From positions 39,491-103,490 of IMG/VR virus record IMGVR_UViG_3300045988_182851: a DNA stretch of 64,000 bases; one strand, given 5' to 3'. Under the pieces are notes generated by a model. It ran no database searches and was not told where the DNA came from. It worked only from the letters and a program-made list of their open reading frames with translations. Position numbers and translations under genes: made by a program. Shown here in pieces: positions 1,396 through 64,000 of the stretch. This stretch comes from a virus. Each line of letters begins with the position of its first letter. Within the stretch, counting starts at the first letter, position 1.

Positions 1396-1740
1396 TTAGA
1401 TGTTCCATCTGAAAATTCAACAAGAATTTTGGTTGGATATTTTATATGTATAAAATTATTCTATTTCTAAAATTTCCTTTAATAAAGCCGCCTTTCTGAG
1501 TTTTTTTATTAATTCTTTTACATTATTATTTTTCTTTGTTCCCATTTAATGGCCTCCTTTAAAAAATTATTTAATTTATATATGACAGAAAAAAAATTAT
1601 TTTGTTATAATATCAAACAATATAGACAAAACTCTGAAGCTTTAAGTTACAAACTTATGGTTTGTTGGGATAAACCAATTTTTTGTGTCAAAAAAAAATA
1701 TTATATTTCCTATCATACATATGGTGGATTATATTTCTCG

Positions 1741-1857
1741 TTTTTATGAAAGGCCGGGCTTTAATATGAACATATAATCAAGCTATGCAGTTGAAGTTAT
1801 GTACTGAGTATAAAGTATAAGTAAATATCCTAGACCAAAGCTTCGGAGTGTATCCAA
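1741..1857 (+). mobile_element. MITE-like internal-deletion derivative of the IS200/IS605-family element at 33819..35375 (left end fused to right end)
   Basis: 1741-1800 nearly identical to the IS left end and tnpB start (tttttatgaaaggccgggctttaatatg.acat..aatcaagctatgcagttgaagtta); 1801-1857 matches the IS right end (atgctgagtacaagg.ataagt..cttcggagtgt); the upstream flank 1600-1740 is homologous to the flank of the full copy. Confidence 0.55.
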
Positions 1858-2010
1858 ATAAAAAATAAGGGATTAAATTAATCAATCCCTTATTTATCCC
1901 TTATTATTTAATTATCTAAAATTTACTTCGCAATTTTTTAAATTTTTGTTATTCTATGCGATTATATTTCCAATTACCAGTTACATCTGTTTTTCTAAAC
2001 CAATTACTTT

Positions 2011-2343
2011 CTAATTTCCTTTGATATCCTTCCTAATAATAAATTTCTGATTTCTATGCTTTCTTTCCAAATATTTGTTGAATGTTTCAACATCCTCTTC
2101 TGATAAAAGACCTTTTAATCCACTACGGCATTTTACAATATTATGAAGACAAAAATTATCTACATGACCATATTGGCATAAATCTCTTGCCATCATCATG
2201 TCACTATAAAGCTGCATGAAAATATCATTATATTTCTTCTCTCCTAATTGAGCGTACAAAGCATTACAAATAATTACTAAATCGTCCGCAGTTAATTCTA
2301 CCATTACTTCTCTTTTTTCCTTTGAGATAGTTTGAATATTCAT
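2011..2343 (-). CDS. hypothetical protein (110 aa)
   Basis: minus-strand ORF. Confidence 0.45.
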   Translation of the reverse strand: MNIQTISKEKREVMVELTADDLVIICNALYAQLGEKKYNDIFMQLYSDMMMARDLCQYGHVDNFCLHNIVKCRSGLKGLLSEEDVETFNKYLERKHRNQKFIIRKDIKGN

Positions 2344-2400
2344 ATTTATTACATTCCTTTCTAAAGTTATTTAACTCTATTACCATTTTTCTTGTTATCT

Positions 2401-2571
2401 TTATAAGTATTCCTCCATATATCCTCTTTGTTGCAATTCTGTTTTTAAACTATCTTGTTCTTTGTATAATAAATCACGCTTATACGCAGATATATTAAAA
2501 TCTTGCAGTTCGCCATCAATTTCATCTAATCTTTTAAAAAGGTCAGAACTATTAGCAGATTTTATTTTCAT
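2401..2571 (-). CDS. hypothetical small protein (56 aa, MKIKSANSSDLFKRLDEIDGELQDF...)
   Basis: translated by hand from the sequence; GGAGG RBS 7 nt before the ATG; preceded by a 50 nt 5'UTR duplicated before the next gene. Confidence 0.35.
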   Translation of the reverse strand: MKIKSANSSDLFKRLDEIDGELQDFNISAYKRDLLYKEQDSLKTELQQRGYMEEYL

Positions 2572-2629
2572 AATATTTCCTCCAATCTTCTAAAGAAACT
2601 CTTGTTTACTCATGCATATCAGTAAATCA

Positions 2630-3016
2630 TCATTTTGTTGTATTTAAAATTATTTCTGAAAAATATTTTCTCTGTTCTTCTAAAGAGCCATACTGTTCCC
2701 AATCAAAATAATTCGCATTTTTATCTGTTAAAATTTCTTGATTTGCAACTACTCTTAATCTGTGTTCTATTTCTTTAATAGTCGGAAATGATTCTGTATC
2801 ATTATTGGTATAAAACAAATACATGTAACCTCTTGATTTTTTTATACCGCTTGTATTACCAATAATAATTGCTCTAAATCCAGCATCATTTTCAACTGTA
2901 ATTTCTGACTCTCCAAGGTCATTATTCCATATGACATTGAAAAGTTTATATACTTCATTTTGCTTTAATTCCTTATATGCATTCTTTATCTTTCTTGCTA
3001 ATTCTAAATAGGTCAT
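2630..3016 (-). CDS. hypothetical protein (128 aa)
   Basis: minus-strand ORF with GGAGGAAAG RBS; shares a duplicated 5'UTR with the 2401..2571 ORF. Confidence 0.5.
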   Translation of the reverse strand: MTYLELARKIKNAYKELKQNEVYKLFNVIWNNDLGESEITVENDAGFRAIIIGNTSGIKKSRGYMYLFYTNNDTESFPTIKEIEHRLRVVANQEILTDKNANYFDWEQYGSLEEQRKYFSEIILNTTK

Positions 3017-3082
3017 ATCTTTCCTCCAATCTTCTAAAGAAACTCTTGTCTACTCATGCATACCAGTAAATCGCCAATTCAT

Positions 3083-3280
3083 TTACTTTAATTCAATTAA
3101 CTCTGCTTCTTCGACATATTTCTTTGCCGCATTATATCCATTTTTATTAAGTTCACCTTCAATGCTAAACCAAAGTGAATCTAAAAAATTGGGAATAGAT
3201 GCAAAATCTTTATTTGGATATTTTTCTCTATATCGCTTATATGCAATTTTATACAATTCATCTACTAAATCACGCTTCAT
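3083..3280 (-). CDS. hypothetical protein (65 aa)
   Basis: minus-strand ORF. Confidence 0.4.
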   Translation of the reverse strand: MKRDLVDELYKIAYKRYREKYPNKDFASIPNFLDSLWFSIEGELNKNGYNAAKKYVEEAELIELK

Positions 3281-4061: not shown

Positions 4062-4535
4062 TTACGCAATCTTCGTTATTTCCATATAACAGCCATCCAT
4101 ACACTTATCATACTGTCTGATATCATATAGCCATTTGAAAGGTATTTTTACAGTTCTTTCATCCTTTAATTTTCCCATTATTTCGTCAATATCGAAATAA
4201 CCTTGCATAAATCCATAACCTGATAAATAATGTTGTCTGTCCAAATTACATAATCTGTCATGATATTTTATGGTATTTTTCTTTAGAAACTTAATATATC
4301 TGTCAGATAAGCCAAAATTTTCTTTTGGGTTGTCTTCACTCCATTCTGATGATAAAAATGAACAACCTTGGAACAATTTAAGTTGCCACATAACTTCACG
4401 CATATTATAAAGAGTCTTTGTGATTCCATTTATTGCGATCATATAATCATTCAATGTTCCTGGCTCCCAATTCTTTTTGCTGCATCTTTTACATTTATAT
4501 GTATCTGTATTAATTATCATTTTATATCGTGCCAT
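4062..4535 (-). CDS. hypothetical protein (157 aa) with N-terminal CxxC
   Basis: minus-strand ORF; CKRCSKK motif. Confidence 0.45.
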   Translation of the reverse strand: MARYKMIINTDTYKCKRCSKKNWEPGTLNDYMIAINGITKTLYNMREVMWQLKLFQGCSFLSSEWSEDNPKENFGLSDRYIKFLKKNTIKYHDRLCNLDRQHYLSGYGFMQGYFDIDEIMGKLKDERTVKIPFKWLYDIRQYDKCMDGCYMEITKIA

Positions 4536-4635
4536 ATTTTATTTCTCCTTTATATTATTTATTATGAAAAATATGACAGAAAATAAAAATATCTCACCCA
4601 ATTAATTTTGGATGAGATATTGTTGCTGCAATCTT

Positions 4636-7405: not shown

Positions 7406-7945
7406 TTAAAGTTCTTTGTCAAAAATCTTTGATTTAATATTATTTGTCTTTACAAGCGGTTCATTCATAAATTCTTTATACTTTTTAGCATAATCAATCA
7501 GTGCATTATTATCATAATTGCTCTCGACTAATGCTCTGGTAAAATTACTATATTTTCCATTGCCCGGCATTAATGCTTTACATTCTTTATTCCATTCAGA
7601 TAATGTATCATAATCATAATTACATGCATCACAAAGAGCTGCAAGCTCTTCATCAGTTGTAGCATCCGAAAGGTCAATAAGCTCTGAATGAACCTTTATT
7701 AATATTTCTTTCTTCTTATCAATAACAGGTTTAATTACCGGTTCGATTGTATCTTTATCTATTTCTATAAAACCACTATCAAAAGATAACCCTGTAAGTC
7801 CACAATCAATTACTATTCCCGGATTAACAATAAAATATCTGTTGTTTACAGTAACAATATTACCTGTTACATACTGCTTTTCTTCATCTTTGGCACTGGT
7901 TCTCCAATTTATTTCCTTTGCCTTGTATATGTATGCATTATTCAT
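7406..7945 (-). CDS. hypothetical protein (179 aa; start moved to the second ATG)
   Basis: the ATG at 7966 lies inside the RBS AAAAGGAGAAAC; the ATG at 7945 has correct SD spacing. Confidence 0.5.
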   Translation of the reverse strand: MNNAYIYKAKEINWRTSAKDEEKQYVTGNIVTVNNRYFIVNPGIVIDCGLTGLSFDSGFIEIDKDTIEPVIKPVIDKKKEILIKVHSELIDLSDATTDEELAALCDACNYDYDTLSEWNKECKALMPGNGKYSNFTRALVESNYDNNALIDYAKKYKEFMNEPLVKTNNIKSKIFDKEL

Positions 7946-7978
7946 AAATTTGTTTCTCCTTTTCATTTTGATAATTTA

Positions 7979-7992
7979 TATATGACAGAAAA
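7979..7992 (-). promoter_or_regulatory. conserved promoter-like motif (plus strand TATATGACAGAAAA; CTGTCATATA in gene orientation)
   Basis: one of more than 35 copies placed about 25-45 nt before RBSs of minus-strand genes; directly follows a terminator hairpin and T-run. Confidence 0.55.
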
Positions 7993-8026: not shown

Positions 8027-8073
8027 AATTCTTAAATTATTGTTAAGTATATATTTTACATTTCAGTTTCTAT

Positions 8074-8127
8074 GAACTACCCGCAATCGATTTTTGTTGA
8101 ATGGAGTTTTCTTGCTATTCTTCGATA
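8074..8127 (-). repeat. R1 structured repeat, copy 1 (GAACTACyCACAACCGAC..TTGTCGG.TGGAGTTTTCTTGCTATTCTTCGATAA)
   Basis: six copies share about 85-95% identity; here it sits between the R2 promoter (8132) and the terminator (8003-8024), suggesting a stand-alone small transcript. Confidence 0.6.
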
Positions 8128-8235
8128 ATTAATATGACAGAGCTAAAATATAATTTGTCTAAAGCATAAAAAAATCGGCTTATCCCACGAAGCTTTAAGC
8201 TTCGGGGTTTTGCCGATATTATTTGATATTATAAA
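8125..8235 (-). repeat. R2 terminator-promoter cassette, copy A (also at 33685..33810 inverted)
   Basis: about 110 nt nearly identical to the reverse complement of 33685-33810; GC-rich nested hairpin atcggc..cccacgaagcttTAAagcttcgggg..gccgat, T-run, then the CTGTCATATTAAT motif. Confidence 0.6.
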
Positions 8236-8239
8236 ATCT

Positions 8240-8518
8240 TCAATATCCAAGTTTTTGCATTTTTTCTATGTTAAATTTCCAATAAGTTACATTTAGCACA
8301 CTATATCTTTTAATAGCATCTTGTTTTAATCCTTCATTTGTAAAAATCAGATCGTACTTTTTTAAATCATTAAATAGTTTCTTACTCATTCTAACTGGGT
8401 AAGATTTAAAACCTTTGTTCTTTTCTTTCGTAATAATTTGATAACAAGCTCCATTATCCAAAATTAAATCATTATTATCAATATTAAGTATATCTCTGCC
8501 TACTTTTAATTTTACCAT
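8240..8518 (-). CDS. hypothetical protein (92 aa)
   Basis: minus-strand ORF. Confidence 0.45.
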   Translation of the reverse strand: MVKLKVGRDILNIDNNDLILDNGACYQIITKEKNKGFKSYPVRMSKKLFNDLKKYDLIFTNEGLKQDAIKRYSVLNVTYWKFNIEKMQKLGY

Positions 8519-10583: not shown

Positions 10584-11543
10584 CTATATTAGCTCTTTAA
10601 TTATTTTAATTGACTTCTCAAATCCATCTGATATGTCATAATTATTCTCTGCTACTTCTAATACATATAATGAATTAAAATTATTTTCTTTAAGTTCTTT
10701 TAAATAATATTCTGCTTTTTGTTTATCGTTAAATGTTTCAAAAGGCTGCCCGTGCTTACCCTTTCCATTACCGTTTCCTTTTGTTATTGATAAATGCACT
10801 ATCTTTGTTGTACTTGCATATCTTTTAAATAATGTGTGCATCTCATATTCAGTTTCATTAATTTCATTATAAAGATTATGTAGTTCTGATACAAATTGAT
10901 GTGTTATCTCTGCATGACATGTATCAAATACATTAAACAATCTGTTACTGTATTCTTTTCCAAGTGTATTTCTTAAATCTTTTACAAGTTCTATACAATC
11001 ATAACTGAAGTTATTCCCTAATTGAAATTCTCCTGTATGTTTATCTATTTTTCTAATAGGACACACATTTTCTATACATAAATCAACTTCTTTATACTTG
11101 GATAATAGTTTTGGTATTACTGTTGTTAATTCTCTATATATTGAATAATTATATACTTTAAGTGTTTTATAATTTAATTCAGAATGTACTACTACATTTA
11201 CTCTGTGATTTTGTCTTAATGCAAATATTTCAGCTAATCTGAATATCTGCTCAAGTAAAAATACATAATCTCTTTGAATTAACTGTTCGATGTTTGGTTG
11301 AATATCAATATGAGCTTCATCTAAATCTAAACCTGGTGTATATTCTAACAATGGTGCATGAACTGAATATACTGGGAACTCCATAAATTTAAATATGTCT
11401 GGAAAAGCTTTTTCAACTGTTTTAAATTGTTTCTGACTTACAATTAACTCATTTAATAGCTGTACTTCTACACCATCTGCCCCTAATTTAATCTTTCTTT
11501 TCATCTGTTCGTAATTCATTGCTGATTTAGCTAAAATTAGCAT
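10584..11543 (-). CDS. xylose-isomerase-like TIM-barrel protein, AP endonuclease family 2 (Nfo/UVDE-like) candidate
   Basis: spaced motifs VHAP, CIENV, FDTCHAE and IVHLS resemble the metal-binding HAPY / IEN / DTCH / HLND series of endonuclease IV-type TIM barrels; AAAGGAGAA RBS. Confidence 0.45.
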   Translation of the reverse strand: MLILAKSAMNYEQMKRKIKLGADGVEVQLLNELIVSQKQFKTVEKAFPDIFKFMEFPVYSVHAPLLEYTPGLDLDEAHIDIQPNIEQLIQRDYVFLLEQIFRLAEIFALRQNHRVNVVVHSELNYKTLKVYNYSIYRELTTVIPKLLSKYKEVDLCIENVCPIRKIDKHTGEFQLGNNFSYDCIELVKDLRNTLGKEYSNRLFNVFDTCHAEITHQFVSELHNLYNEINETEYEMHTLFKRYASTTKIVHLSITKGNGNGKGKHGQPFETFNDKQKAEYYLKELKENNFNSLYVLEVAENNYDISDGFEKSIKIIKELI

Positions 11544-11578
11544 AATAAATTCTCCTTTATATAATATATTTTCCTATA

Positions 11579-11592
11579 CTATATGACAGAAA
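11579..11592 (-). promoter_or_regulatory. conserved promoter-like motif (TATATGACAGAAAA)
   Basis: about 45 nt before the ATG at 11543; TTGTGTCAAA element 16 nt further upstream. Confidence 0.5.
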
Positions 11593-52452: not shown

Positions 52453-54225
52453 TTAATAATCAATATCATCGAAAATAATCTGTGGAGTTGTTACGCCATT
52501 CCATGTATTTTCACTTAATCTTCCATATAAAGTTAAAACAGTTGGTTCTCCAAGCTTTTCAAATTTTTCAACTAACCCGCCAAAATTAATTGCGTTAGCC
52601 TGATTATTAAAGAGTTTTAAAACCTTTTTTTCAGCACCCAAAAGCTGATAATATACACCTTTTCTTAGTTCTGTCATATAAGAAATTTTATATCTTGGCT
52701 CTTCAAATCCTTTGCCAAAGATATAATTATGAAAGGCTTCCTGCTCTTCCTTTACCTGCTCTACTGTAATATCGTAATCATAATACTTGTAATTGAACTC
52801 TTTTGGCTTTTCTCCTGCAGCTTCATGTATAGCTTCAATAAACTTATCCATATTTTCAGCTTTAACTTCTGAAATACCTGCTGCATACGGATGTCCTCCA
52901 TAATTACCCATATACTGCTTAACCTGATCTAATAATAACTTCATATTAACATTTGCCCCTTCAATTTCTGGTGCTCTTGCAGAACCTTTATAGGCGGTAC
53001 CATTATTTATTGGAGCAAATACAATAACAGAAGTATTGTATTCTTCCTGTAACTTACCGGCAATTAAGCCAATAACTCCCGGATGTATTTCTCCTTCCTT
53101 ACCACATATAACAATAGGATAGTCATTTTCCATATGAGCTTCCTCTATACGCTGTTTTAAAACAGGTAAAAGGTCATTAGTATATGCCTTTCTTCTTTCG
53201 TTTGCTTCTACTAGAACCTTTGCTTTTGCAATTGCTGTAACAAAGTCGTTGTCATTCTGAAGGAAAAGGTCTACTACCTGATTAGAACCAAAAGTTTCCA
53301 GTCTTGAAATAGCGTTAATGGTAGGACTTATTAAATAAGCTAAATCATCAGTTGTTACAACAGTTTCAAGATCAGGTTTAAGGCCTACAAGTAAGCAGAA
53401 CATTCCGGTTGTACGTCCAGAATTCTGTGTTAATGTGAATAGCCCGTTCTTGAGTATTAAATAATTATCATATCCATATACTCCATTAATATTTTCAATT
53501 AAATTAACACTATCGCCAACAGTTGCAATAGCAGCAAGACCGTTTATCTTATCTATTGTTTCATCTTTAATATACCATTCTGGCAAATTTAATTGCTTAA
53601 TATGCTGAGCAAATTTATATACAAGCCCTGCACCACAATAATCTGAGAATTTTGCACCACAATCAACTGCATGAGGATCAATAATTACATCTGCAGGTGG
53701 CAATATTTTTTTATTGGTTTCGTCAGTAACTGGAAGGTGATGATCTAAAATAAGAACACTCCAACCTAATTCTTTTGCCTTTGTTATTGCGTCAAGAGCT
53801 GCGATACCATTATCTACAGTTATTAACAATCCTGTATCATAATTTTTTATAACTGGTAAACCATGAATTGATATTTCATTACATAAATATTCTACAATAT
53901 TTGCAGAAGCTCCATATCCATCTAATTCTCTATCTGGTATATACCATTTTACATCTGAGAATTTAAGGTCTGATAACATAAGATTTAATTCAGATGTTGA
54001 ACATATTCCATCGGTATCATAATCTCCTATTATTCTAACTGGCTTATATTTAAATAAACTAAGTAAATTAAACGCCTTGTCAAAATTGGAAATTTTGTAA
54101 TATTCAGATGTTTCTCTACCATTATTAAAATCAGCAAAATATTTATTTGCTTTTTCAATAAAATTTACCTCATCAGTATTTTTCTTCTTCCATGTTATAC
54201 ACATATAATTTGTTCTCCTTTTCAA
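52453..54225 (-). CDS. DHH-DHHA1 family single-stranded DNA exonuclease (RecJ-like)
   Basis: motif I IIGDYDTDGICS, motif III VLILDHHLP, DHHA1 GGHPYAAG. Confidence 0.75.
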   Translation of the reverse strand: MKRRTNYMCITWKKKNTDEVNFIEKANKYFADFNNGRETSEYYKISNFDKAFNLLSLFKYKPVRIIGDYDTDGICSTSELNLMLSDLKFSDVKWYIPDRELDGYGASANIVEYLCNEISIHGLPVIKNYDTGLLITVDNGIAALDAITKAKELGWSVLILDHHLPVTDETNKKILPPADVIIDPHAVDCGAKFSDYCGAGLVYKFAQHIKQLNLPEWYIKDETIDKINGLAAIATVGDSVNLIENINGVYGYDNYLILKNGLFTLTQNSGRTTGMFCLLVGLKPDLETVVTTDDLAYLISPTINAISRLETFGSNQVVDLFLQNDNDFVTAIAKAKVLVEANERRKAYTNDLLPVLKQRIEEAHMENDYPIVICGKEGEIHPGVIGLIAGKLQEEYNTSVIVFAPINNGTAYKGSARAPEIEGANVNMKLLLDQVKQYMGNYGGHPYAAGISEVKAENMDKFIEAIHEAAGEKPKEFNYKYYDYDITVEQVKEEQEAFHNYIFGKGFEEPRYKISYMTELRKGVYYQLLGAEKKVLKLFNNQANAINFGGLVEKFEKLGEPTVLTLYGRLSENTWNGVTTPQIIFDDIDY

Positions 54226-54309
54226 TATTATTTAACAAATTAATGACAGAAAAATAAAATAAAAAGCATACATTATATTGTTTTATGCAATACAATGTAT
54301 GCTTCTGAA

Positions 54310-54696
54310 TCATAAATAGAAAAACAACCCTGAATAATAATACTTAGGAAGTTTATCTATCTCTTTACAAATTTGAATAATTCTTTCATCCACTAAGAAA
54401 GAATATTGTTTTACTCTTCTTACATCAGATTTAAAATAATGTACATCATTTATAAATCCTATAAGAATAGTAAAGAATATAACATAAGACAAAATACTTA
54501 TTATACTTAATATAATATGTATTAAGCCTGTAGTTAATAAATTCAAATTTGTAAAAATAGAAATTAACAAAGTTACACATAACTTTGTCTGCTGCATAGC
54601 TGTATATTTTTCAATATCACGCCAATAAGTTGTATAACCTGCAGCAACAGAGTTATATTTCTTTAAGAAAAAATGATTTAATATATTTTTATTCAT
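54310..54696 (-). CDS. membrane protein (128 aa)
   Basis: three TM helices. Confidence 0.45.
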   Translation of the reverse strand: MNKNILNHFFLKKYNSVAAGYTTYWRDIEKYTAMQQTKLCVTLLISIFTNLNLLTTGLIHIILSIISILSYVIFFTILIGFINDVHYFKSDVRRVKQYSFLVDERIIQICKEIDKLPKYYYSGLFFYL

Positions 54697-54730
54697 TATT
54701 TCTTCTCCTTTATTAATTATATTCTGATAG

Positions 54731-54746
54731 ATATATGACAGAAAAA
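54731..54746 (-). promoter_or_regulatory. conserved promoter-like motif (ATATATGACAGAAAAA)
   Basis: see the motif finding. Confidence 0.5.
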
Positions 54747-55102: not shown

Positions 55103-56938
55103 TTATAAATCAAATACTAGCCTGTAATTTGCATTAAGAGCAATACTTACGTCATTATGACTTAAGCTATGTTTGTCCATAAATCCGCAGGCATCAAGTT
55201 TAAAGATGATATCGTCAACATCATCTTTCCATAGTCCCCATTTTTTATCCTGATAATATATTTTTTCAAATAAATTAAAAAAGCTTGAATTTAAAATAAA
55301 TTCCTTTATTTTCTTTTTAAGTATTCTATATTTGTTTGCATATTTTTTTATTGTATCTAACTTTTCTTTATATTTTTTTACAAGCTTTTGTTTGTCTACT
55401 ATGGGATTCCTCCGTGTAGCGCCAACAATTTTTCTTTTATTAACTTCTTTGATATTATTTTTTATCTGTTCAAGTCTGTCAGCATCTTGAGTAAGCTTTC
55501 GTGAAATTACATTTGAAGATACATGCAATTCTTTCATTATTTCCTTATATGTTTTACCCATTGCATATAATTCTACAATTTTATTATATTTAAATTCTCT
55601 TCGTTTTTTGTTTCTTTCTACCTGTTCTTTTTTCTTTAACTTTTCTTCCATTCTATAGCCTTCAAGATTTTTAAGACCATATTCTCTTCTTGCTGTAAGT
55701 GGATCCAACCCTAACCCTTTTATGAAGGTCGTTGTTTTAAATTTACACCAATTCACATTATTAACATTATTAAAATCTTTGAATGTAAATAGTTCTAATT
55801 CATCAATTGATAATGGCTCTGAAGTTTTCTTTGTTAGCTTCAGCATTTCCTTTTTTGCAGTTTCATCATCATATGCTGCTCTTAAAGTATTATATGCGTA
55901 ATAGGCAAAATCTAATTTATCAACATACTTAGGAACAGCATCCTTAGCAAAATTATTAAGGAATTCTATTCTGTTTATTAAATTATCCTGTAAATATGAA
56001 GGAAGGTTTAATTTATTGCTGTTTTTGCTGTCTGAATCTTCATAGTTTACAATATCATGCAATCTATCATTATTCTTTATAAAATATAAATGATGTAATG
56101 TGTTATATAAATCATGTACAGTTGTTTTATTCTTATTAATAAATAATAATGTTGGAGTCTCAAAATTTATTGCATCATAAGTTCCAGGTACACGAATTAA
56201 AGAGTCACATTTTACTGACTCTTTGTCTACTTCAGGGAAACCTAATGAAATTCCATTCATGTCTATTTGTTTATTTATAACCTGTAATAATACCTTTCCT
56301 ACCAGATTATATTTCCACAAGAGATCCTTTGATAATTCTTCAATGCCATATATTAATTCAACTTCATTATATATAGCGTTAATAATATTAGGCTTTGGGG
56401 CATCTCCTAAAATATAATCATAGTTATTGAGGAAATATTGAATATTGTCTTTATAATCTTCTTCTGGCCATATTATTCTTACACATATAGCTTTTAGACA
56501 GAATATATTTTTTTCACACCTAGCCATTCGCTTTTGTATTCTACTATGTGGTGTCTTACCAGTACTATACCCTGAAGTAGAAAAACCTATTTCAATTTTG
56601 TCGTAGAATTCTTTATCTGAAACAACAGATGTCTTTAATGGGTTAATGCACATATATCTATTATATTCTTCGTTCAAATAATCCTTATTGAGATTAGAAA
56701 GCACATCTTCTGCATTAGACCTAAAAACTGCTGTCTTAGATGCATCATTAACATTTAATGCAACAAATTGATAATGGCATTGATACTGCTCATTCTCTTG
56801 TTCTGTTATAAATTTAATAGCTCTCTTCTCGTTTTTATCTGCACAATTTAAAAATTTCTGTTTTGTCATAAATAACCTCGCTATGAAAATCTTATATATA
56901 TCTTTATGACAGACAAAAAAAATTTTTTTCTTACACAA
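55103..56938 (-). CDS. hypothetical protein (611 aa) with an internal HTH; possible replication initiator or primase-associated protein
   Basis: HTH-like GKTYKEIMKELHVSSNVISRKL; position within the replication block; no catalytic motif assigned. Confidence 0.4.
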   Translation of the reverse strand: MCKKKIFFVCHKDIYKIFIARLFMTKQKFLNCADKNEKRAIKFITEQENEQYQCHYQFVALNVNDASKTAVFRSNAEDVLSNLNKDYLNEEYNRYMCINPLKTSVVSDKEFYDKIEIGFSTSGYSTGKTPHSRIQKRMARCEKNIFCLKAICVRIIWPEEDYKDNIQYFLNNYDYILGDAPKPNIINAIYNEVELIYGIEELSKDLLWKYNLVGKVLLQVINKQIDMNGISLGFPEVDKESVKCDSLIRVPGTYDAINFETPTLLFINKNKTTVHDLYNTLHHLYFIKNNDRLHDIVNYEDSDSKNSNKLNLPSYLQDNLINRIEFLNNFAKDAVPKYVDKLDFAYYAYNTLRAAYDDETAKKEMLKLTKKTSEPLSIDELELFTFKDFNNVNNVNWCKFKTTTFIKGLGLDPLTARREYGLKNLEGYRMEEKLKKKEQVERNKKRREFKYNKIVELYAMGKTYKEIMKELHVSSNVISRKLTQDADRLEQIKNNIKEVNKRKIVGATRRNPIVDKQKLVKKYKEKLDTIKKYANKYRILKKKIKEFILNSSFFNLFEKIYYQDKKWGLWKDDVDDIIFKLDACGFMDKHSLSHNDVSIALNANYRLVFDL

Positions 56939-56979: not shown

Positions 56980-58905
56980 TCAGTAATTATACGAAAATGA
57001 CATATGATTATTTAAATGTTTTAAATATGGGGTAAGATATACTTTACGTTCATGATATATTTCTGGGACACATAAGTACATTTGTTTTTTTGCTCTTGTA
57101 ATAGCAACATAGAATACTCTTAGATTTTCCTGTCTTTCTTCTTCAGCCATGCTCATAGCATTAAATCCTGGGTAAACTCCTGTGACACAATCAAGTACAA
57201 ATACATATTCCCATTCCAAACCTTTTGCTGAATGTACTGTTGAAATAACCAAGCCCTCTTCTTCATCTTTGTTATCCATCCCTAAAGTTAAATTATCAAG
57301 AAAAGCGTTTAAAGATTTGTGATGATTAAACACTGTACATAATTCATATAACTGTTTTAAAATATTTTTATCATCATCTAATTTATCCTGTTCATTTATT
57401 TTTTGCTCTTCATTTAATTTAGCATTTTCCAATAATTCTTTTCTTTGTTCAATATAATATTCATTTATTTTTAGCACAAGATCAGGAATACTTAACTGGT
57501 TTCTATAATACTTAATTCTAAAATTCAAAATTGTATTATGCAATTTTTCCATGTCTTGATGAAATTTTTTTGTTGGATATTCATGCAGCAAGAAATCTTT
57601 TTCTGTTACATGTTCTACAATATTTCTTGCATATGTATCACCAATTCCATATATTAATTGTAATATTCTAAACCACGCTAATGTGTCAATTGGATTAGCA
57701 ATAACTCTTAAATAGGCTAAGATATCCTGGACAGCTTCTCTTTCAAAAAATTTAGGTCCTCCAACTTTTTTGTACGGAATATTATTATTCATTAACAATG
57801 TTTCCAATATAGCTGAATCTCTGGAATACTTCTCTAGCACTGCTATATCCTTATATGGGACATTTTTATTATGCAGCTTAATTATTCTATTTAAAATGCA
57901 GGTTGCCTCTTCTGCCTGATTTTGAAGGCTTATGACTTCAGGCATATTTCCTTGTTTATTATTACTTGTCATATTCTTAGGATATCCAAAATTAGCATAC
58001 CGGTTCATAACTGAATTTGCTAAATTAAGTATTTCTGTAGTGGAACGATAATTCTTTTCAAGTTTTATTACTTTGCAATTTGTATGCTTTTTAGGGAAAT
58101 TAATAAAGTTAGACACATTGCTTCCTCTGAAAGCATAGATGCTTTGATAATCATCTCCTACAACTGCTAGATTCTCATATTTCTGAGCCATTTTAAATAT
58201 AATTCTTTCCTGCAGATTATTGGTATCTTGATACTCATCTACCATAATATATTTATAACTGCTTGAAATTTGATTTCTGACAGCTTTATTATCTAATAAT
58301 TCGTTAAAGTATATTAACAAATCATCATAATCTACCAGATTATTTTCCTTTTTATAATTTTTGTATTTTTCAAACAGCTCAGTATATATATATGATAAAA
58401 ATGCCAAGTTACTATCTTTAAGCCCAATAACTGTTTCTAATGGTAAATCTTGATTAATTGACATGCTAAATATTTTGGCGATTTCAGATACAGAGAAGCC
58501 GCTTTTTATTTTATATTTTTCTGGATTTTCAGCTATAAGAAGTTTAATTGTATTTACAATATCGCTCTCAGAAAGTATAGTAAAGTTTTTTCTTAGACCA
58601 ACTAAAACCCCATATATCCTTAACATTTTGGCACAAAAAGAATGATATGTACATGCAGTAATTTTATTGCATCTTTCATCTAATATTTGTGCAGCTCTTT
58701 CACTCATTTCATTAGCTGCCTTATTAGTGAATGTTAAAAGCAGAATACTCTGAGGTGGAATTCCATTTTCTATCATATATGCAACTCTATGTATTAATGT
58801 TGCTGTTTTGCCTGTACCTGCTCCTGCAATAATAAGTAATGGCCCATTAATTGTTGTAGCAGCTTCATATTGCTGCTCATTTAAAACAGCTTTATAATCA
58901 ATCAT
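56980..58905 (-). CDS. UvrD/PcrA-family SF1 DNA helicase (641 aa)
   Basis: motif I IIAGAGTGKTATL, motif II YIMVDEYQDTN, motif IV KNYRST, motif V/VI VISTVHSAKGLEWEYVFV. Confidence 0.85.
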   Translation of the reverse strand: MIDYKAVLNEQQYEAATTINGPLLIIAGAGTGKTATLIHRVAYMIENGIPPQSILLLTFTNKAANEMSERAAQILDERCNKITACTYHSFCAKMLRIYGVLVGLRKNFTILSESDIVNTIKLLIAENPEKYKIKSGFSVSEIAKIFSMSINQDLPLETVIGLKDSNLAFLSYIYTELFEKYKNYKKENNLVDYDDLLIYFNELLDNKAVRNQISSSYKYIMVDEYQDTNNLQERIIFKMAQKYENLAVVGDDYQSIYAFRGSNVSNFINFPKKHTNCKVIKLEKNYRSTTEILNLANSVMNRYANFGYPKNMTSNNKQGNMPEVISLQNQAEEATCILNRIIKLHNKNVPYKDIAVLEKYSRDSAILETLLMNNNIPYKKVGGPKFFEREAVQDILAYLRVIANPIDTLAWFRILQLIYGIGDTYARNIVEHVTEKDFLLHEYPTKKFHQDMEKLHNTILNFRIKYYRNQLSIPDLVLKINEYYIEQRKELLENAKLNEEQKINEQDKLDDDKNILKQLYELCTVFNHHKSLNAFLDNLTLGMDNKDEEEGLVISTVHSAKGLEWEYVFVLDCVTGVYPGFNAMSMAEEERQENLRVFYVAITRAKKQMYLCVPEIYHERKVYLTPYLKHLNNHMSFSYNY

Positions 58906-58938
58906 AAATTATTACAATCCTTTCCATTATTAAATTTA

Positions 58939-58994
58939 TTAACTACTCGCAACTGACTATTGTCGGATGGAGTTTTCTTGCTATTCTTCGATAA
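58939..58994 (-). repeat. R1 structured repeat, copy 6 (5'UTR of the UvrD helicase)
   Basis: about 20 nt downstream of the promoter motif at 59005-59020. Confidence 0.6.
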
Positions 58995-59055
58995 AATCTT
59001 TTATTTAAAATATGACAGATTTATAGTGGATTTTTCTTACATAAAAAAGAGAAGC

Positions 59056-59799
59056 TTATTGCTCCTCTTTTTCAACTCTTATTTCAACAATCTCACCTTT
59101 GAAATAATCATTAACAAATTCAATATTACCTGAATGTATTACTTTATTATTCAATAATGGAGTATCTACAATGAATTCTATTACAGATCCATTTGGATTC
59201 TGCCTATGCGTCAGTTTATCTGTATGTTCATCAGATTTAGCTTCAGCAAAAATACAGGGAATAATAGTTCCGTTTTCTAAAACCACATCAATTTTTTTAC
59301 CTATAGTCTTTGTATAAAATGAACCTACTGCTATACAATATCTATCATTTACCATTCTAAGACCGGTATTAACATCTGTATAAGCTTCATTATCCTGCAT
59401 ATCAAATTGCTTAGATGTTTTATCTGTAATTGTTCTATAATCCATAAAGGATTTGAAATGGCAATTATCAGGAGTATCATATAATTCATATTCAGATAAA
59501 TAAATATTAGGAATATCGTTTTTATCCGAATCGGATTCTAAATCTGAATTATCTTCATTAACTTCAACTTCTTCAATTGTTTGATAATTAACATCATCAT
59601 CTAATGAATTATCTGATATTTTCTTTTGAATTGTTGTAAAAAAAGCTGATTGATTAGGCTTTATTGTATGGTTTGTAAAATTAGAACATTTTTTGTTTTC
59701 AGCCGCATACACATATGGCTTAAAATTACATAAGCAAATACACAGTGAAAATAAAAATAAACTTAAGGTAATATTGAATTGTTTTAAAATTTTTTTCAT
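59056..59799 (-). CDS. secreted protein (signal peptide); weak 3D-domain-like C-terminus
   Basis: MKKILKQFNITLSLFLFSLCICLC signal; C-terminal ..CIAVGSFY..IDVVLENGTIIPCIFAEAKSDEHTD loosely resembles a 3D (MltA-like) domain. Confidence 0.35.
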   Translation of the reverse strand: MKKILKQFNITLSLFLFSLCICLCNFKPYVYAAENKKCSNFTNHTIKPNQSAFFTTIQKKISDNSLDDDVNYQTIEEVEVNEDNSDLESDSDKNDIPNIYLSEYELYDTPDNCHFKSFMDYRTITDKTSKQFDMQDNEAYTDVNTGLRMVNDRYCIAVGSFYTKTIGKKIDVVLENGTIIPCIFAEAKSDEHTDKLTHRQNPNGSVIEFIVDTPLLNNKVIHSGNIEFVNDYFKGEIVEIRVEKEEQ

Positions 59800-59888
59800 A
59801 ATATTTCTCCATTAATATATTGTTCATTATATATATGACAGAGAAAAAAAGTCTTTATGCGATTAAACACAAAGACTTTTGCAATAGT

Positions 59889-60531: not shown

Positions 60532-61851
60532 TTAATGAGTAATAATATTAGATAATGCAGTCATAATTTCTTCATTATTTTCTATTATTTGGTTTTTATC
60601 AAAGCCAATTATATACTGAACATAAAAATTATAAAGTACATCATAACTGATTTTGTAATCTAAAATTGACTTATCATTAATAACAGGGGCAAAATTATAT
60701 TCTATGCATAATTGCAATGACTTTAAATTTGCATATTTACCTTTAATAGCCTTTGAAATATCATTAATCCATAAAACATTATGTCCTACTTCAAATTGAT
60801 TCATACGCAAAGCTGTATATTCAATTTGGAATAATGACTTCTGTTCTTCAGCAGTAAATAATCTTTCAGGCTCAGCATACAATTTTTTAATATTTATAAT
60901 ATTATTTGACATAAATTCAAGAATATTACAAATAATTCCACTACCAGTTATTGCTGTTACATTATCAATAGACGATGCTAAAATAGCGTGTTCCTTTAAT
61001 TTTCCCTCTGGAATATCAATTAAAAGATTATTTGCTACAGAATTCATTTCTTTTGTTAATGTTTTCTTTATCTGTTTAATAATTTTTGCTTCAAAATATG
61101 TCGCTTTTATCATACTAAGTTCCTTAATATGATATTTTTCATATAATTCCACACCTAATATTTTTTGTAAATTATGTTTTGCTTCTATATCAGGGACAAT
61201 AATGGTTTTGTTTTCATCAGTCTTTATATATAAAGAATATCTGAACACAGAAAAAGGGATACTTTTTATTGAACCGTAATTTTTATATATATTTATTCTT
61301 TCATTTAAAAAATTTGTTATATTATTTAATTCATCTTCTGTAAGATTTGATTTTTTCTCATTAACACTATAATGAGCTAAGAAATCTCTTATTGTATTTC
61401 CTCCATAAATTTCAGTGCCGTTATGATTTTTTATAACATTACCGGCATTAATAATTTTGTCAGGAGTCATAAAATAATTTAAATCTAATCCTTTTAATTT
61501 AAATACCAAACCCTTATAAATCATTCCATAAGCTAAATCGGCTAATTCGATAATAGAGCGTGTAGGTAAATTTTCAATATTTAATTTAACAACATCATCA
61601 TATTTAAATAAATTAATGAGTGCATTCTTTTTTGCATTATATCCATTTTGTAAATTATAAATATGTAATGGTGATAATTCTAATATATGCCTGCCGCACA
61701 TATATCCATACATTGTTTTATAAAAAATATCACATTTGTTATAATCATATTTAAATGCTTTTAAAATTTCTTTAGGATATTTCCTATTTGCTCTTTTTTT
61801 TACATTATTGTTTTTATTACTATTTTCCTTAAATTCAACTTTTGTTATCAT
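60532..61851 (-). CDS. hypothetical protein (439 aa)
   Basis: long ORF; promoter motif at 61911-61929. Confidence 0.5.
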   Translation of the reverse strand: MITKVEFKENSNKNNNVKKRANRKYPKEILKAFKYDYNKCDIFYKTMYGYMCGRHILELSPLHIYNLQNGYNAKKNALINLFKYDDVVKLNIENLPTRSIIELADLAYGMIYKGLVFKLKGLDLNYFMTPDKIINAGNVIKNHNGTEIYGGNTIRDFLAHYSVNEKKSNLTEDELNNITNFLNERINIYKNYGSIKSIPFSVFRYSLYIKTDENKTIIVPDIEAKHNLQKILGVELYEKYHIKELSMIKATYFEAKIIKQIKKTLTKEMNSVANNLLIDIPEGKLKEHAILASSIDNVTAITGSGIICNILEFMSNNIINIKKLYAEPERLFTAEEQKSLFQIEYTALRMNQFEVGHNVLWINDISKAIKGKYANLKSLQLCIEYNFAPVINDKSILDYKISYDVLYNFYVQYIIGFDKNQIIENNEEIMTALSNIITH

Positions 61852-61977
61852 ATAAATCCTCCAAAATATATTAATCTTATATTGTTTGATAGAAAATTAA
61901 TTCTATATAATATATATGACAGAACAAAATAAAAAACAGGGCAATATATACCCTGTTTTAAATCATTAATTTACATT

Positions 61978-62346
61978 TTAAATATTCATTTCTAAATATT
62001 TTTCTTGTTCATCATTTAATGCATCATATATTTCCGTAGAAGGAATTACTTCACAATTCATTAAACTATTATGATATGATTTTTCAGAAACATCATGACG
62101 TAAATGATCAATAGGAACTCTTAGATTCCACATTTTTATTGCTTCATCTTTAGTCTTACCCATTCCACCGCTGGCTCCACAGCCTCCTTTTGCGTAATCG
62201 CAAGTAATCTTAAAGCCATTAGTTTTAATAGGGGTAATACTCATTGAGTCCCACTTTCTACAAAATGGACATCTTTTGAGTCCTACCTTTATTGTCTTAT
62301 TTGTCTTATTTATTGCATTTGTTGACACTGTTGCTGTTGTTATCAT
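61978..62346 (-). CDS. Lar-family restriction alleviation protein
   Basis: LKRCPFCRKWDSMSI...ITCDYAKGGCGASGGMGKTKDEAIKMWNLR: zinc ribbon plus EAI..WN.R ending typical of Lar-like proteins. Confidence 0.55.
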   Translation of the reverse strand: MITTATVSTNAINKTNKTIKVGLKRCPFCRKWDSMSITPIKTNGFKITCDYAKGGCGASGGMGKTKDEAIKMWNLRVPIDHLRHDVSEKSYHNSLMNCEVIPSTEIYDALNDEQEKYLEMNI

Positions 62347-62376
62347 TATTGTATTCTCCTTTTTTCTAGTTGTTTT

Positions 62377-62889
62377 TTAAATTGATGAATTCGAAGAAGT
62401 AATTGTATGTTCAATATTTTCAATTCTTATATTATCATCAAATAATTTTTCTATTGGTGATTTATCTTTGTCTGAAATCAGATTATATTTATTAGCAATT
62501 CTTGGCATCATTCTATGTAAATCTTCAAGTTTAAAACTTCCGTAAAAACTCAGAAAATTCTCACGATTCATACTATAATTGCTATTAGAGTTTTTATAAA
62601 ATTGATTTATTTCTCTTCTTAAAGCTTCTTGTATTATACTCGGAAGCTCTGATACACATGTATGACGGTCTACTATACCTGCATCATACCAGTTATACTT
62701 TTCTAAATCAGCCTTAGAAATAATAGTTTTGGATAATAAAAATCCAAATGCAGTTATTCTTTCTGAATTTTCAGATTCATGCTTCTTTATAATGATATCT
62801 TTAGCTTCATTAAAATTTTGAAAAGCTATTGGCTCAATTGAATCCGGGATTTCCTCTATAGTATCCTTTAAAGCATAATATTTATACAT
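62377..62889 (-). CDS. hypothetical protein (170 aa)
   Basis: minus-strand ORF. Confidence 0.45.
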   Translation of the reverse strand: MYKYYALKDTIEEIPDSIEPIAFQNFNEAKDIIIKKHESENSERITAFGFLLSKTIISKADLEKYNWYDAGIVDRHTCVSELPSIIQEALRREINQFYKNSNSNYSMNRENFLSFYGSFKLEDLHRMMPRIANKYNLISDKDKSPIEKLFDDNIRIENIEHTITSSNSSI

Positions 62890-62901
62890 AAATTTACCTC
62901 C

Positions 62902-63117
62902 TTAAGATGCCAGTACAGTTGTATCAATAATATCGATTACTTTTCTTAATCCATCATTATATGTTTTGCTTCCGCAAATAATATTAATAATAGAATCCTG
63001 AGTTCTGTTATCATTTAATACACAAAAATCATCTGCTATTACCATTAATTGTTGTGCATCTGCAATTGGCATTAATATTTTTCTGTCACCTATCATTTTT
63101 TGATATCTCTTCTTCAT
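62902..63117 (-). CDS. hypothetical protein (71 aa)
   Basis: minus-strand ORF. Confidence 0.4.
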   Translation of the reverse strand: MKKRYQKMIGDRKILMPIADAQQLMVIADDFCVLNDNRTQDSIINIICGSKTYNDGLRKVIDIIDTTVLAS

Positions 63118-63230
63118 TTTTTCTCCTTTGGCTTTGTTATTATATATATTGAATGACAGAAATATAAAATAAGATGAAAATTATGATACTGTTTCTTAAA
63201 TTAAAATCTTAAATGCTGTGATTGTTTAAA

Positions 63231-63845
63231 TTAGTGTTTAGAAAACCATTCTATCCATTTACTTGTGTCTTGTAATTCTATGAATTTACTAGAATATTTT
63301 ACGCAATCATAGTGCCCTATTGTGATTAGCGCATAAATAATAAAATTATTTTCATCGTTACTAATTTTGCAATTATAAGATATATTTCTTTTATTCTTTT
63401 CTAAGCAAAAGAATTTATTGTATATTTTTGTTTCATAATTAATTGACTGTAATACAACAACAATAATTTTATTATTTTTTTTGATACACATAAGGTTTTT
63501 ATTAAATAATTTTGATTCATATAATGAATAGACATTTTCTCCATCTCTAATTGTTCTATAGAAATATTTTTTTCGTTCATAATAACTTTCTTCCTGATCA
63601 ATAATATAAAAATCGCTTGATTGAAAATTAAAAATGAATAATCTGTTTTTATCTGAAAATAAATTATAATAATTATTGTTATATGCAAGTGTTCCACTTA
63701 AATCAATTTTGTTATTTTCAGAAAGTCTTGAATTTTGTATTATATGCTTTTTGTTTTCTTGTATGATATTTGGGAATTTTAATTCATATGAATACAGCCT
63801 ATTTTCTTTTTTGGTATTTTCAATACATGGTATATTAATAAACAT
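63231..63845 (-). CDS. hypothetical protein (204 aa)
   Basis: minus-strand ORF; promoter motif at 63889. Confidence 0.45.
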   Translation of the reverse strand: MFINIPCIENTKKENRLYSYELKFPNIIQENKKHIIQNSRLSENNKIDLSGTLAYNNNYYNLFSDKNRLFIFNFQSSDFYIIDQEESYYERKKYFYRTIRDGENVYSLYESKLFNKNLMCIKKNNKIIVVVLQSINYETKIYNKFFCLEKNKRNISYNCKISNDENNFIIYALITIGHYDCVKYSSKFIELQDTSKWIEWFSKH

Positions 63846-64000
63846 AATATCTGTTTAACTCCTTAAATTAAAATCTTAATTAATAAATATATGACAGTTT
63901 AAAAAAATATTTTTCGAAAAACAATATAAAAAACAGCCATCAAATTGATATGATACCTCTTAAGTAGACATGGTAAATAACCAAAATCTATTTAAGGGGT

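Follow-up and report, generated by a model that had tools for sequence, protein, structure and literature searches.

A recurrent, probable extended -10-like promoter core in a gut phage and an RpoD-derived phage sigma factor as its candidate reader

Introduction

What reads the promoters of a phage in which one short sequence recurs before its genes? The question arises from a stretch of 64,000 nt (the window, that is, the whole stretch of DNA analysed here; positions 39,491 to 103,490 of IMG/VR virus record IMGVR_UViG_3300045988_182851), in which an earlier note had described a repeated motif, with CTGTCAT as its core in gene orientation, as the promoter of one dedicated specificity, and had pointed to a sigma-70-family factor encoded at 17831–18859 as its possible reader. 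The window has 28% G+C and strong Shine-Dalgarno (SD) sequences, and matches a 95-kb IMG/VR contig of gut origin at 98% identity. We found that the orientation of the motif, its fixed distance to start codons and its conservation favour a dedicated specificity, as do substitutions in the sigma factor, in which residues that contact promoter position -12 have been replaced in step with an invariant C at that position. Judged from the sequence, the motif is very likely a promoter of some kind, and TCTGTCATAT is probably a phage-specific, -35-independent extended -10 promoter core that would be read by host core RNA polymerase (RNAP) carrying the phage sigma.

Results

Abundance, strand and placement of the motif core

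Bases were counted as i from the first C of CTGTCAT (C0, i = 0); counts out of 37 refer to the gene-strand sites of the window, and counts out of 50 take in sites from relatives. On both strands of the window together, the 7-mer ATGACAG, which is CTGTCAT in gene orientation, occurred 41 times against 7.15 ± 2.66 expected, while the 10-mer TATATGACAG was found 12 times exactly (0.19 expected) and 52 times with ≤1 mismatch (7.75 expected). CTGTCAT was concentrated on the minus strand, which carries the genes (35 copies versus 6 on the plus strand, binomial p 5e-6), confirming the polarity given in the earlier note, and 34 of the 35 gene-strand copies fell in non-coding DNA in a window that is 80% coding (p 3e-23). 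Sites in the proper context numbered 37 on the gene strand, to which one plus-strand copy before tnpB is added. A position-weight-matrix scan, a check proposed in that note, contributed just one extra site. A context-filtered search for one-mismatch cores returned only two variants, both at i = 1.

The original count of at least 35 copies proved sound, with 34 of the 36 listed positions being exact cores to within a few nucleotides. The other two were 45555, a one-mismatch CAGTCAT (C0 45564) that nevertheless has the full context, and 47088 (ATGTCAT, 47095), which lacks the usual context and is doubtful; an exact site at 4573–4579 and the variant CCGTCAT at 40080–40086 had been overlooked. The motif had also been called genome-wide, and it does go on along the gene strand in the rest of the 95-kb contig, to which extent the description is good. 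A random strand distribution elsewhere would have spoken against a promoter; in the contig pieces L009, L007 and L130 the motifs keep gene strand and context.

Alignment of the 50 sites showed CTGTCAT to be essentially invariant. A T-run occupies i = -8 to -1, with T at i = -1 in 46 of 50, and the core is followed by A7 (46/50), T8 (45/50), A or T only at i = 9–14, T at i = 15 (40/50, p 5e-10) and a purine at i = 16 (45/50, p 2e-6). The distance from C0 to the start codon was 37–55 nt at 31 of the 37 sites, longer leaders mostly containing a separate conserved hairpin element of 57 nt, and the SD was located 24–36 nt from C0, in agreement with the 20–30 nt between motif and SD noted before. 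Searching the literature for the motif string produced unrelated primers only, and a scan of IMG/VR for TTTTTCTGTCATATN6TA gave, among the matches listed, mostly unrelated single ones.

The motif in the register of extended -10 promoters

The extended -10 consensus of Gram-positive bacteria is TRTGnTATAAT, located 6–8 nt before the transcription start (PMC5036317), and extended -10 promoters can work without a -35 element (PMC4593229). Set in the register of this consensus, the bases of the motif are T(-17) C(-16) T(-15) G(-14) T(-13) C(-12) A(-11) T(-10) A(-9) T(-8) W(-7). The motif agrees with the consensus at T(-17) (46/50), at TG and at A(-11), T(-10) and A(-9), and departs from it at C(-16), C(-12) and T(-8). 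The TG stands one base before the hexamer CATATW, its G invariant and its T present in 48 of 50 sites, and the T-purine step 6 nt past the hexamer falls at -1/+1. The main departure is the C at -12, which is invariant in all 37 sites and in the relative. Within the hexamer A(-11), T(-10) and A(-9) are in place, but -7 is shared about evenly between A and T. What variation the core tolerates is confined to T(-15), the less critical base of TG (2 sites). The earlier view that the motif is unlike sigma-A promoters was therefore abandoned for a match to the extended -10 class, with TG before CATATW and the T-purine step 6 nt after it.

Host promoters of the usual kind were not enriched in the window, whether counted as canonical host-type promoters (125 versus 134 ± 10.5 expected), as TGnTATAAT (11 versus 13.9 expected) or as TTGACA-N17-TATAAT with ≤2 mismatches (30 versus 37.4 expected).

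Other assignments of the same letters were also considered. We rejected CTGTCA as a -35 hexamer, in spite of its 4/6 match to TTGACA, as a -10 element at 17 bp would put the start inside or after the SD. Also rejected was a sporulation promoter for sigma-E/K, with CATA as -10 or KMATATT as -35 element, because the partner elements were absent or would lie beyond the SD. The extracytoplasmic function (ECF) class of sigma-E type found no GGAAC-like element at the motif sites, the upstream half described below being present at 9 of 37 only. The extended -10 register was preferred since the phage sigma retains the aromatic residues F419, Y425 and Y430, which are linked to melting at -11A. In this register, moreover, the -11A is the one invariant A of the motif (i = 5), TG has its proper position and the T-purine step lies at +1.

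CTGTCA could alternatively be bound by an activator or repressor of the phage, at a site overlapping a weak -10 element of host type (TATWTW, i = 6–11). The upstream half, in which an RTGTMA resembling CTGTCA sits at a fixed offset of 24 nt, looks like the second of two sites for one DNA-binding protein, and the conservation of A7 and T8 is as expected for such a -10 element. Under this arrangement, however, the TG would be misplaced by 2 bp, the T15/R16 step would fall at -3/-2 without a role and the substitutions at the -12 contacts of the sigma factor would be a coincidence; no candidate regulator was found, the sole hint being a marginal match (E 9e-4) in the open reading frame (ORF) 55103–56869. 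We thus consider a regulator site very unlikely.

Nor does the conserved block, at 11 bp plus 2, resemble the promoter of a T7-like single-subunit RNAP, in which about 17–23 conserved bp span the start. A phage RNAP encoded elsewhere, whether single-subunit or divergent and multi-subunit as in jumbo and crAss-like phages, might still read the motif: the strictness of the core is that of phage polymerase promoters and the genome is probably incomplete, with relatives reaching 149–295 kb. Against this, the short block with its T-purine step has the layout of sigma-70-family extended -10 promoters, a sigma factor with matching substitutions is present, and the 95 kb examined contained no RNAP gene, polymerase-like protein or DxDGD motif (the sole DxDGD match was a chance one, in DnaE). 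Such a polymerase is an improbable reader.

Substitutions in the phage sigma factor at residues tied to -12

The protein encoded at 17831–18859 on the minus strand (342 aa) matched the Pfam families Sigma70_r2 (53.7 bits) and Sigma70_r4 (41.8 bits). Its best NCBIfam match was RpoD_Cterm and its best PDB matches were SigA/RpoD chains, while it scored 179.4 bits against the RpoD equivalog TIGR02393, under the cut-off of 354, and its identity to cellular RpoD was ≤42%. It is clearly RpoD-derived, with regions 1.2 to 4.2. Only one distant relative was found among 5.8 billion proteins, P0003 (51% identity), whose gene lies on contig L002 in the same gene order.

Residues were numbered as in E. coli by alignment to cellular RpoD. 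In E. coli numbering, Q437, R441, R451, V454, H455 and E458 contact T-15/G-14 and the backbone at -16/-17 and are 100% conserved in 1002 sigma-A sequences, and the W433 'wedge', which stacks on T(-12), is 100% conserved in the same set (PMC4593229); for E. coli sigma-70, the only suppressors known of a promoter mutation from T to C at -12 are T440I and Q437H (PMC2613000). The phage sigma, whose region 2.3–3.0 reads FSTYAT-H-WIRQSI-Y-RELANYDLLVRFPVHVRE, retains all six of the former residues, and the TG readers H455, E458, R441, V454 and R451 are also kept in P0003. In contrast, in region 2.3–2.4, W433 of the W433/W434 dyad is replaced by H and T440 by Y in the window sigma, and by N and I, respectively, in P0003. 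Among the 119 nearest homologues W433 was kept in 115 and T440 in 108, and both were changed in this clade only. TG and A-11 are retained in the promoter just as their readers are in the sigma, and it is at -12 that both have changed.

Further lineages with changes at 440 were sought for comparison. P0099 (T440I) was set aside, lying on a short contig with cellular-type neighbours (glycosyltransferases, ABC ATPase), as was P0005 (T440M), on a short contig with an AAA ATPase and ORFs without Pfam matches beside it; both contigs hold too little sequence for defining promoters. The sigma matches labelled 'Bacteriophage sp.' were canonical RpoD.

These substitutions bear on whether the motif is simply an ordinary extended -10 promoter for host sigma-A, the phage sigma serving other genes such as structural ones outside the window. 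The motif has the TG, A(-11), T(-10) and A(-9) of sigma-A promoters, extended -10 promoters can act without a -35 element (PMC4593229), and the presence of the motif on the operon of the sigma gene itself is easiest to explain if host polymerase reads it. But C(-12) is invariant, although the change from T to C at -12 is a sigma-70 down mutation that needs T440I or Q437H (PMC2613000), and invariance extends to C(-16) and T(-13), two positions at which sigma-A has no specificity. Moreover, host-type promoters normally vary, whereas only 2 one-mismatch variants occur here, and consensus sigma-A promoters are nowhere enriched in the window. We regard host sigma-A as an unlikely reader, and prefer the phage sigma.

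Upstream half and terminator hairpins

The earlier note had the motif usually accompanied by a TTATGTAAAA half upstream, at a variable spacing of N13-17. The half (TT-R-TGT-M-A-R-A) was actually present at 9 of the 37 sites, which we call class b, and its spacing was rigid, the R of RTGTMA lying exactly 24 nt before C0 in every case. On the gene strand, 9 of 12 occurrences of TT-R-TGT-M-A-R-A had the 24-nt spacing, compared with 0 of 5 on the other strand. In the extended -10 register the half spans -42 to -33, with its centre near -37, and lies 21–22 bp from the CATATW hexamer; its RTGTMA resembles the CTGTCA of the core. Class b status was kept in L002 at the 2 comparable sites, namely the sigma operon and the first gene after a long non-coding region. 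The upstream half would probably contact a second factor or a part of the polymerase, and would mark a promoter subclass. Candidates for its partner are alpha-CTD, an unusually placed region 4 and an activator, the last as at the middle promoters of T4.

In class a, the majority, the T-tract of a terminator leads straight into the core. A strong hairpin (MFE, minimum free energy, ≤ -8 kcal/mol) lay directly upstream of 23 of the 36 sites tallied, against 23% of random windows, so that the placement directly after terminator hairpins claimed before holds for these and not for the 13 others, which have none. Between 20 and 40 kb, terminator-like sites (a GC-containing stem-loop with a T-run) were three-fold over-represented (17 versus 5.4 ± 2.2 expected), mostly on the gene strand and immediately preceding the motif. 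At 28 of the 37 sites only a T-run or a terminator hairpin was found where a -35 element would be, which would be explained by the independence of extended -10 promoters from a -35 element.

Orientation and conservation

The only plus-strand gene, tnpB, has its own copy of the motif, as the earlier note had seen: the core at 33787–33793 (+) lies 56 nt before the ATG at 33843, and no plus-strand gene lies upstream. In L009 (309–338) two copies stand back to back, 16 nt apart and directed outward. At L009 300–340 (about 4315–4355 of the IMG/VR contig) an SD, an ORF of 7 codons and a terminator-like hairpin come after the leftward copy, as if a very short divergent transcript were made there.

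These copies weigh on a further explanation, in which CUGUCAU is a site in RNA where a nuclease processes read-through transcripts or where these are stabilised, freeing monocistronic mRNAs whose leaders are uniform, with the hairpins as 3' protectors. The uniform distance to SD and start codon would suit such a site, as would its frequent position just 3' of a hairpin and U-run. Yet the tnpB-facing copy, on an otherwise unused strand, and the divergent pair of L009 have no plausible upstream transcript, which favours a promoter over a processing site, and 13 of 36 sites have no hairpin. In addition, no other promoter type is enriched that would make the precursors, the rigid 24-nt offset of the upstream half fits recognition in DNA, and the motif showed no conserved pairing partner: when the entire window was scanned against Rfam, at gathering and E ≤ 1 thresholds, no RNA family appeared at the motif or elsewhere, the sole match, an L20 leader (E 0.097), being merely a terminator hairpin. 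A processing site is accordingly a very doubtful alternative to the promoter.

Conservation was examined at two distances. In L002, the block TTTTTCTGTCATA and the SD were kept at the equivalent intergenic sites of both DnaE pieces and the sigma operon, where the hairpin sequences differ from those of the window. Against the 98% relative there were 0/200 substitutions in i = -1 to 8, compared with about 2% in the flanks (Fisher p 0.07, underpowered), and 1/360 in i = -1 to 16, again with about 2% in the flanks; the two contrasts go in the same direction.

A cassette of 115 nt comprising hairpin, T-run and core is duplicated, at 8140 on the minus strand and at 33787 on the plus strand, with unrelated sequences downstream. 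Homology stops exactly between i = 15 and i = 16, as would be expected of a promoter ending at -1. The cassette spans 8125–8240 (-) and 33700–33803 (+) and consists of the hairpin TTTTATAATATCAAA...GGCTTCGTGGGATAAGCC, the T-run and CTGTCATATTAATTAT; its copies, in opposite orientations, lie one ahead of tnpB and one ahead of a copy of the 57-nt element. The cassette may represent the left end of the TnpB element; alternatively, the element may have taken over a mobile promoter module.

Sites along the window

Sites are given by their C0 with, in brackets, their coordinates and the distance to the start codon; all are on the minus strand except the copy facing tnpB, and 'hairpin' denotes an upstream hairpin. 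Starting from the highest coordinates, class a sites at 63897 (63881–63898; 52 nt) and 63159 (63143–63160; 42 nt) precede ORFs of 204 aa (63231–63845) and 71 aa (62902–63117), and class a sites with a hairpin at 61922 (61906–61923; 71 nt) and 59841 (59825–59842; 42 nt) precede ORFs of 439 aa (60532–61851) and 247 aa (59056–59799). The class b site at 59018 (TTATGTAAGA; 59002–59044), which has a hairpin, heads a leader containing the 57-nt hairpin element before a UvrD-like helicase gene (56980–58905), and another class b site, at 56912 (TTGTGTAAGA; 56896–56938; 43 nt), serves the 588-aa ORF 55103–56869. Class a sites follow at 54741 (54725–54742; 45 nt) before ORF 54310–54696, at 54249 (54233–54250; hairpin; 45 nt) before a RecJ-like gene (52453–54204) and at 52366 (52350–52367; hairpin; 44 nt) before ORF 51831–52322. 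The UvsX-like recombinase gene (50646–51740) has a class b site without a hairpin at 51787 (TTATGTAAAA; 51771–51813; 47 nt).

The class a site at 50621 (50605–50622) has no SD or start codon within 160 nt, the 853-aa ORF 47627–50188 lying about 430 nt downstream. At 47570 (47554–47571; hairpin; 46 nt) a class a site precedes ORF 47102–47524, and at 46881 (46865–46882; 43 nt) another precedes ORF 46566–46838 and, after it, a primase-like gene (45631–46569). The variant CAGTCAT at 45564 (45548–45565; 44 nt), with a T-run and hairpin upstream, belongs to ORF 45095–45520, and the class b site at 45014 (TTATGTAAAA; 44998–45040; hairpin), through a leader with the hairpin element, to an SPFH/flotillin gene (43302–44876). 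A 973-aa UvrD-like protein (40155–43076) is encoded behind the class a site at 43117 (43101–43118; 41 nt), and ORF 39746–40036 lies behind the variant CCGTCAT at 40086 (40070–40087; hairpin; 50 nt). The class a site at 38912 (38896–38913; 43 nt), before a methyltransferase gene (37973–38869), is the sole core that overlaps coding DNA, the 3' end of 38883–39749.

Next come a class a site at 37637 (37621–37638; hairpin; 43 nt) before ORF 37445–37594, a class b site at 36743 (TTATGTAAAA; 36727–36769; hairpin) before a 37-aa ORF (36575–36688), and the plus-strand copy (33786–33803) before tnpB (33843–35192). Class a sites then precede ORF 32544–33593 (33642; 33626–33643; 49 nt), ORF 31260–32411 (32457; 32441–32458; 18-bp hairpin; 46 nt), the N-terminal DnaE piece 29307–31148 (31190; 31174–31191; equivalent L002 site conserved), ORF 27318–27554 (27600; 27584–27601; hairpin; 46 nt), ORF 25036–25494 (25537; 25521–25538; hairpin; 43 nt), an exonuclease-like gene 23490–24371 (24411; 24395–24412; hairpin; 40 nt), ORF 22372–22953 (22999; 22983–23000; hairpin; 46 nt) and the C-terminal DnaE piece 20295–21980 (22024; 22008–22025; equivalent L002 site conserved).

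The sigma operon is headed by a class b site at 20219 (TTATGTAAAG; 20203–20245; 37 nt) with a hairpin at 20251–20273; in its L002 equivalent the core is kept and a GTG lies at the same offset. Sigma is the third gene behind this site, in keeping with the earlier remark that its own operon carries the motif. Two genes precede it (18872–20182, minus strand), encoding an Rce1-like/CPBP intramembrane protease (19271–20182) and a 131-aa ORF (18872–19267).

Beyond the sigma gene and a 1.2-kb non-coding region, the class b site at 16595 (TTATGTAAAA; 16579–16621) precedes the gene of a DUF5688 protein (15616–16551); its L002 equivalent (13588) is class b too. A class b site at 12732 (TTATGTCAAA; 12716–12758) is in tandem with the class a site at 12673 (12657–12674; 46 nt), the class b site coming first and the two (12657–12758, minus) being separated by 59 nt; both serve a single ORF of 121 aa (12262–12627). 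The remaining sites are a class b site at 11589 (TTGTGTCAAA; 11573–11615; 46 nt) before ORF 10584–11543, the promoter-like site of the cassette at 8140 (8124–8141), which precedes the hairpin element 8072–8128 and no ORF, and class a sites at 7988 (7972–7989; 43 nt), 4579 (4563–4580; hairpin; 44 nt; the exact site that had been overlooked) and 1588 (1572–1589; 43 nt) before ORFs 7406–7945, 4062–4535 and 1456–1545 (29 aa), respectively.

Other features of the genome

The window encodes a three-piece DnaE, two UvrD-like helicases, RecJ, a UvsX-like recombinase, a primase-like protein, TnpB and one sigma-70-family protein. No tRNAs were found in the window, and no structural genes in the 95 kb made up of the window with L007, L009 and L130. 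With relatives of 149–295 kb, the window is probably part of a larger phage genome. No cultured relative was close by DNA, DnaE or sigma protein, and TnpB had no close relative in 185,579 species genomes.

The window has two genes for Rce1-like/CPBP intramembrane proteases (19271–20182 and 38883–39749, both minus). The first heads the sigma operon and is followed by the 131-aa ORF, in the same gene order as in L002, an arrangement that recalls, by analogy, sigma/anti-sigma control by regulated proteolysis. The 588-aa ORF 55103–56869 (-), behind a class b site, has a marginal sigma-70/ECF match (NCBIfam E 9e-4, residues 333–484) and an HTH-like segment (Pfam HTH_28, E 0.035 only); from these faint matches, it could perhaps be a second transcription factor.

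The 57-nt element occurs in six copies, all on the minus strand (8072–8128, 26592–26635, 37388–37444, 44910–44954, 46986–47042 and 58938–58994). It reads TTATCGAAGAATAGCAAGAAAACTCCATCCGAC-AAUAG-GTCGGTTGTGAGTAGTTCAT and forms an 11-bp hairpin with a few compensatory changes. Four copies end 20–45 nt before the start codons of the UvrD-like helicase, SPFH/flotillin, a nucleotidyltransferase and a 187-aa ORF, and the other two are found by themselves between two promoter motifs, in the manner of small RNA genes. The element had no Rfam match and reads as a terminator on the opposite strand. It could act in translation, as an operator or leader common to several genes, but a small RNA or an antisense terminator are further options.

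Beside the sigma gene, the ORF-free stretch of 1.2 kb at 16600–17830, in which GC skew collapses to about 0, contains four TATATTGTTA repeats spaced 45–90 nt apart (16759, 16813, 16868 and 16956). L002 has a non-coding region in the same place (12026–13357) with the same 10-mer twice, and we regard the stretch as a putative iteron-bearing origin of replication.

DNA polymerase III alpha is split into three minus-strand ORFs (29307–31148, 27659–28417 and 20295–21980) whose profile coordinates join exactly, PF07733 ending at 102 and resuming at 103 and PF17657 ending at 59 and resuming at 63. The first gap contains an HNH/NUMOD4 homing endonuclease gene (28580–29098); the second is 5.7 kb long with about ten genes that have promoters of their own, and measures 750 nt in L002.

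L131 (GenBank MT836173.1), a distant gut phage fragment of 40% G+C, encodes an intact 1376-aa DnaE that is about 32% identical. On its plus (gene) strand a CATACT motif, a -10-like element beginning with C, occurs in 7 copies (1451, 2238, 6485, 7759, 10049, 10704 and 11937), several of them after a hairpin, T-run and A-run and five about 35–65 nt before an SD-led ORF, whereas the 10 copies on the other strand lack that context. A C-initial -10-like pattern may be common among such phages.

Discussion

In the reading that we prefer, host core RNAP with the RpoD-derived phage sigma would recognise the element, and the purine conserved at i = 16 would be the first base transcribed, giving a leader of about 27 nt that carries the SD. 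The sigma keeps its readers of TG and A(-11), with the two residues that touch -12 replaced, matching the invariant C(-12). As no -35 contact would be needed, the promoter could abut the T-tract of the preceding gene's terminator, which would make most genes compact, insulated units of terminator, promoter and SD.

Several observations speak against this reading, in which the start site and the reader are deduced from the sequence. Position -7 is merely W, though T(-7) is normally the second most conserved base of the -10 element; the upstream half, at 21–22 bp from CATATW, is too far for a standard -35 contact; and CTGTCA taken as a -10 hexamer would give the canonical spacing of 17–18 bp to that half. 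The co-variation between sigma and promoter comes from two sigma lineages only and amounts to one contrast with cellular RpoD. The genome is probably incomplete, no structural genes having been found in the 95 kb examined. Finally, since the sigma operon carries the motif, the first sigma molecules need another source. That source may be weak reading by the host, perhaps aided by the upstream half, which is present there in both lineages; read-through; a promoter outside the window, where early ones would go unseen; or injected protein.

A bolder version of the same idea, which we put forward tentatively and think less than even in its chances, is a natural, fully orthogonal sigma/promoter pair, in which W433 and T440 have been given up for an 11-bp C(-12) element with a subclass defined by the rigid half-site. 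The element would include C-16 and T-13 and need no -35 contact, and the half-site at 21–22 bp would imply an unusual contact with region 4 or an activator.

Phages with a sigma factor and promoter set of their own are well known, and the strategy is in this sense ordinary. In SPO1, a phage sigma has its own short promoter before many genes. The late promoters of T4 (TATAAATA at -10) are read by gp55/gp33 and have a strict, -10-only consensus that is used many times, like the motif, but they lack the TG extension that the motif has; gp55 is a minimal, region-2-like sigma and needs the sliding clamp as activator. Middle and late promoters of the Thermus phage P23-45 are extended -10 promoters without a -35 element, thereby escaping dependence on sigma region 4. 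There, host sigma-A reads a normal TGnTATAAT and gp39 disables -35 recognition, no phage sigma being involved, so that P23-45 shares the -35-less layout and differs in having neither a phage sigma nor C at -12. The -10 element of E. coli sigma-E, an ECF factor, is TGTCAAA and shares the pentamer TGTCA with the motif. ECF promoters need a GGAAC-type -35 element at 16–17 bp, however, which is absent here, and no clear ECF sigma was found (one ORF, E 9e-4).

The sigmas of phiEco32 and phage 7-11 are small and divergent, whereas that of the window is RpoD-derived, with regions 1.2 to 4.2. Their promoters (TAATGTATA for gp36 of phiEco32 and TGTGATGTTATA for 7-11) are nevertheless close in kind, being short -10-region motifs without a -35 element before middle and late genes, and the gene of the reading sigma lies behind such a promoter there as well (PMC4331800). 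They differ in sequence, and both phages have clear host-type early promoters, of which none was seen here. Compared with Gram-positive extended -10 ('-16 region') promoters for sigma-A, the motif shares the position of TG, T(-17), A(-11)T(-10)A(-9) and a dispensable -35 (PMC5036317, PMC4593229), and would share a start 6–7 nt past the hexamer; it differs in C(-12), a C instead of a purine at -16, a fixed T(-13), T in place of A at -8 and no preference for T(-7), and its core is near-invariant where host promoters are degenerate. The T440I and Q437H mutants of E. coli sigma-70 resemble the phage sigma in that position 440 of region 2.4 is changed and the promoter has C(-12) (PMC2613000). Those mutants are laboratory suppressors of single promoters, however, while the changes here are natural, include the loss of W433 and concern a whole promoter set; Q437 is unchanged in the phage sigma.

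A phage sigma with its own repeated short -10-type promoter is thus a known strategy, in which the sequence described here is new. What appears to be new beyond that is an RpoD-derived sigma without the invariant W433, the natural match of substitutions at 440 and 433 to C(-12), the systematic fusion of promoter and terminator, and a half-site at a rigid, non-canonical spacing.

For this uncultivated clade of gut phages, the sites delimit about 37 transcription units, each with a start site predicted to single-base precision, and can be used as a map in annotation. C(-12) is linked here to natural changes at the two residues of sigma that genetic and structural work assigns to -12, which makes the pair a clean and testable natural experiment on how -10 specificity evolves. 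The pair is also a candidate orthogonal sigma/promoter system, short (11 bp) and strict, for low-GC Gram-positive hosts. If its orthogonality is true, a handful of residue changes would be enough to insulate host from phage transcription, and each gene of the phage would be a terminator-promoter cassette.

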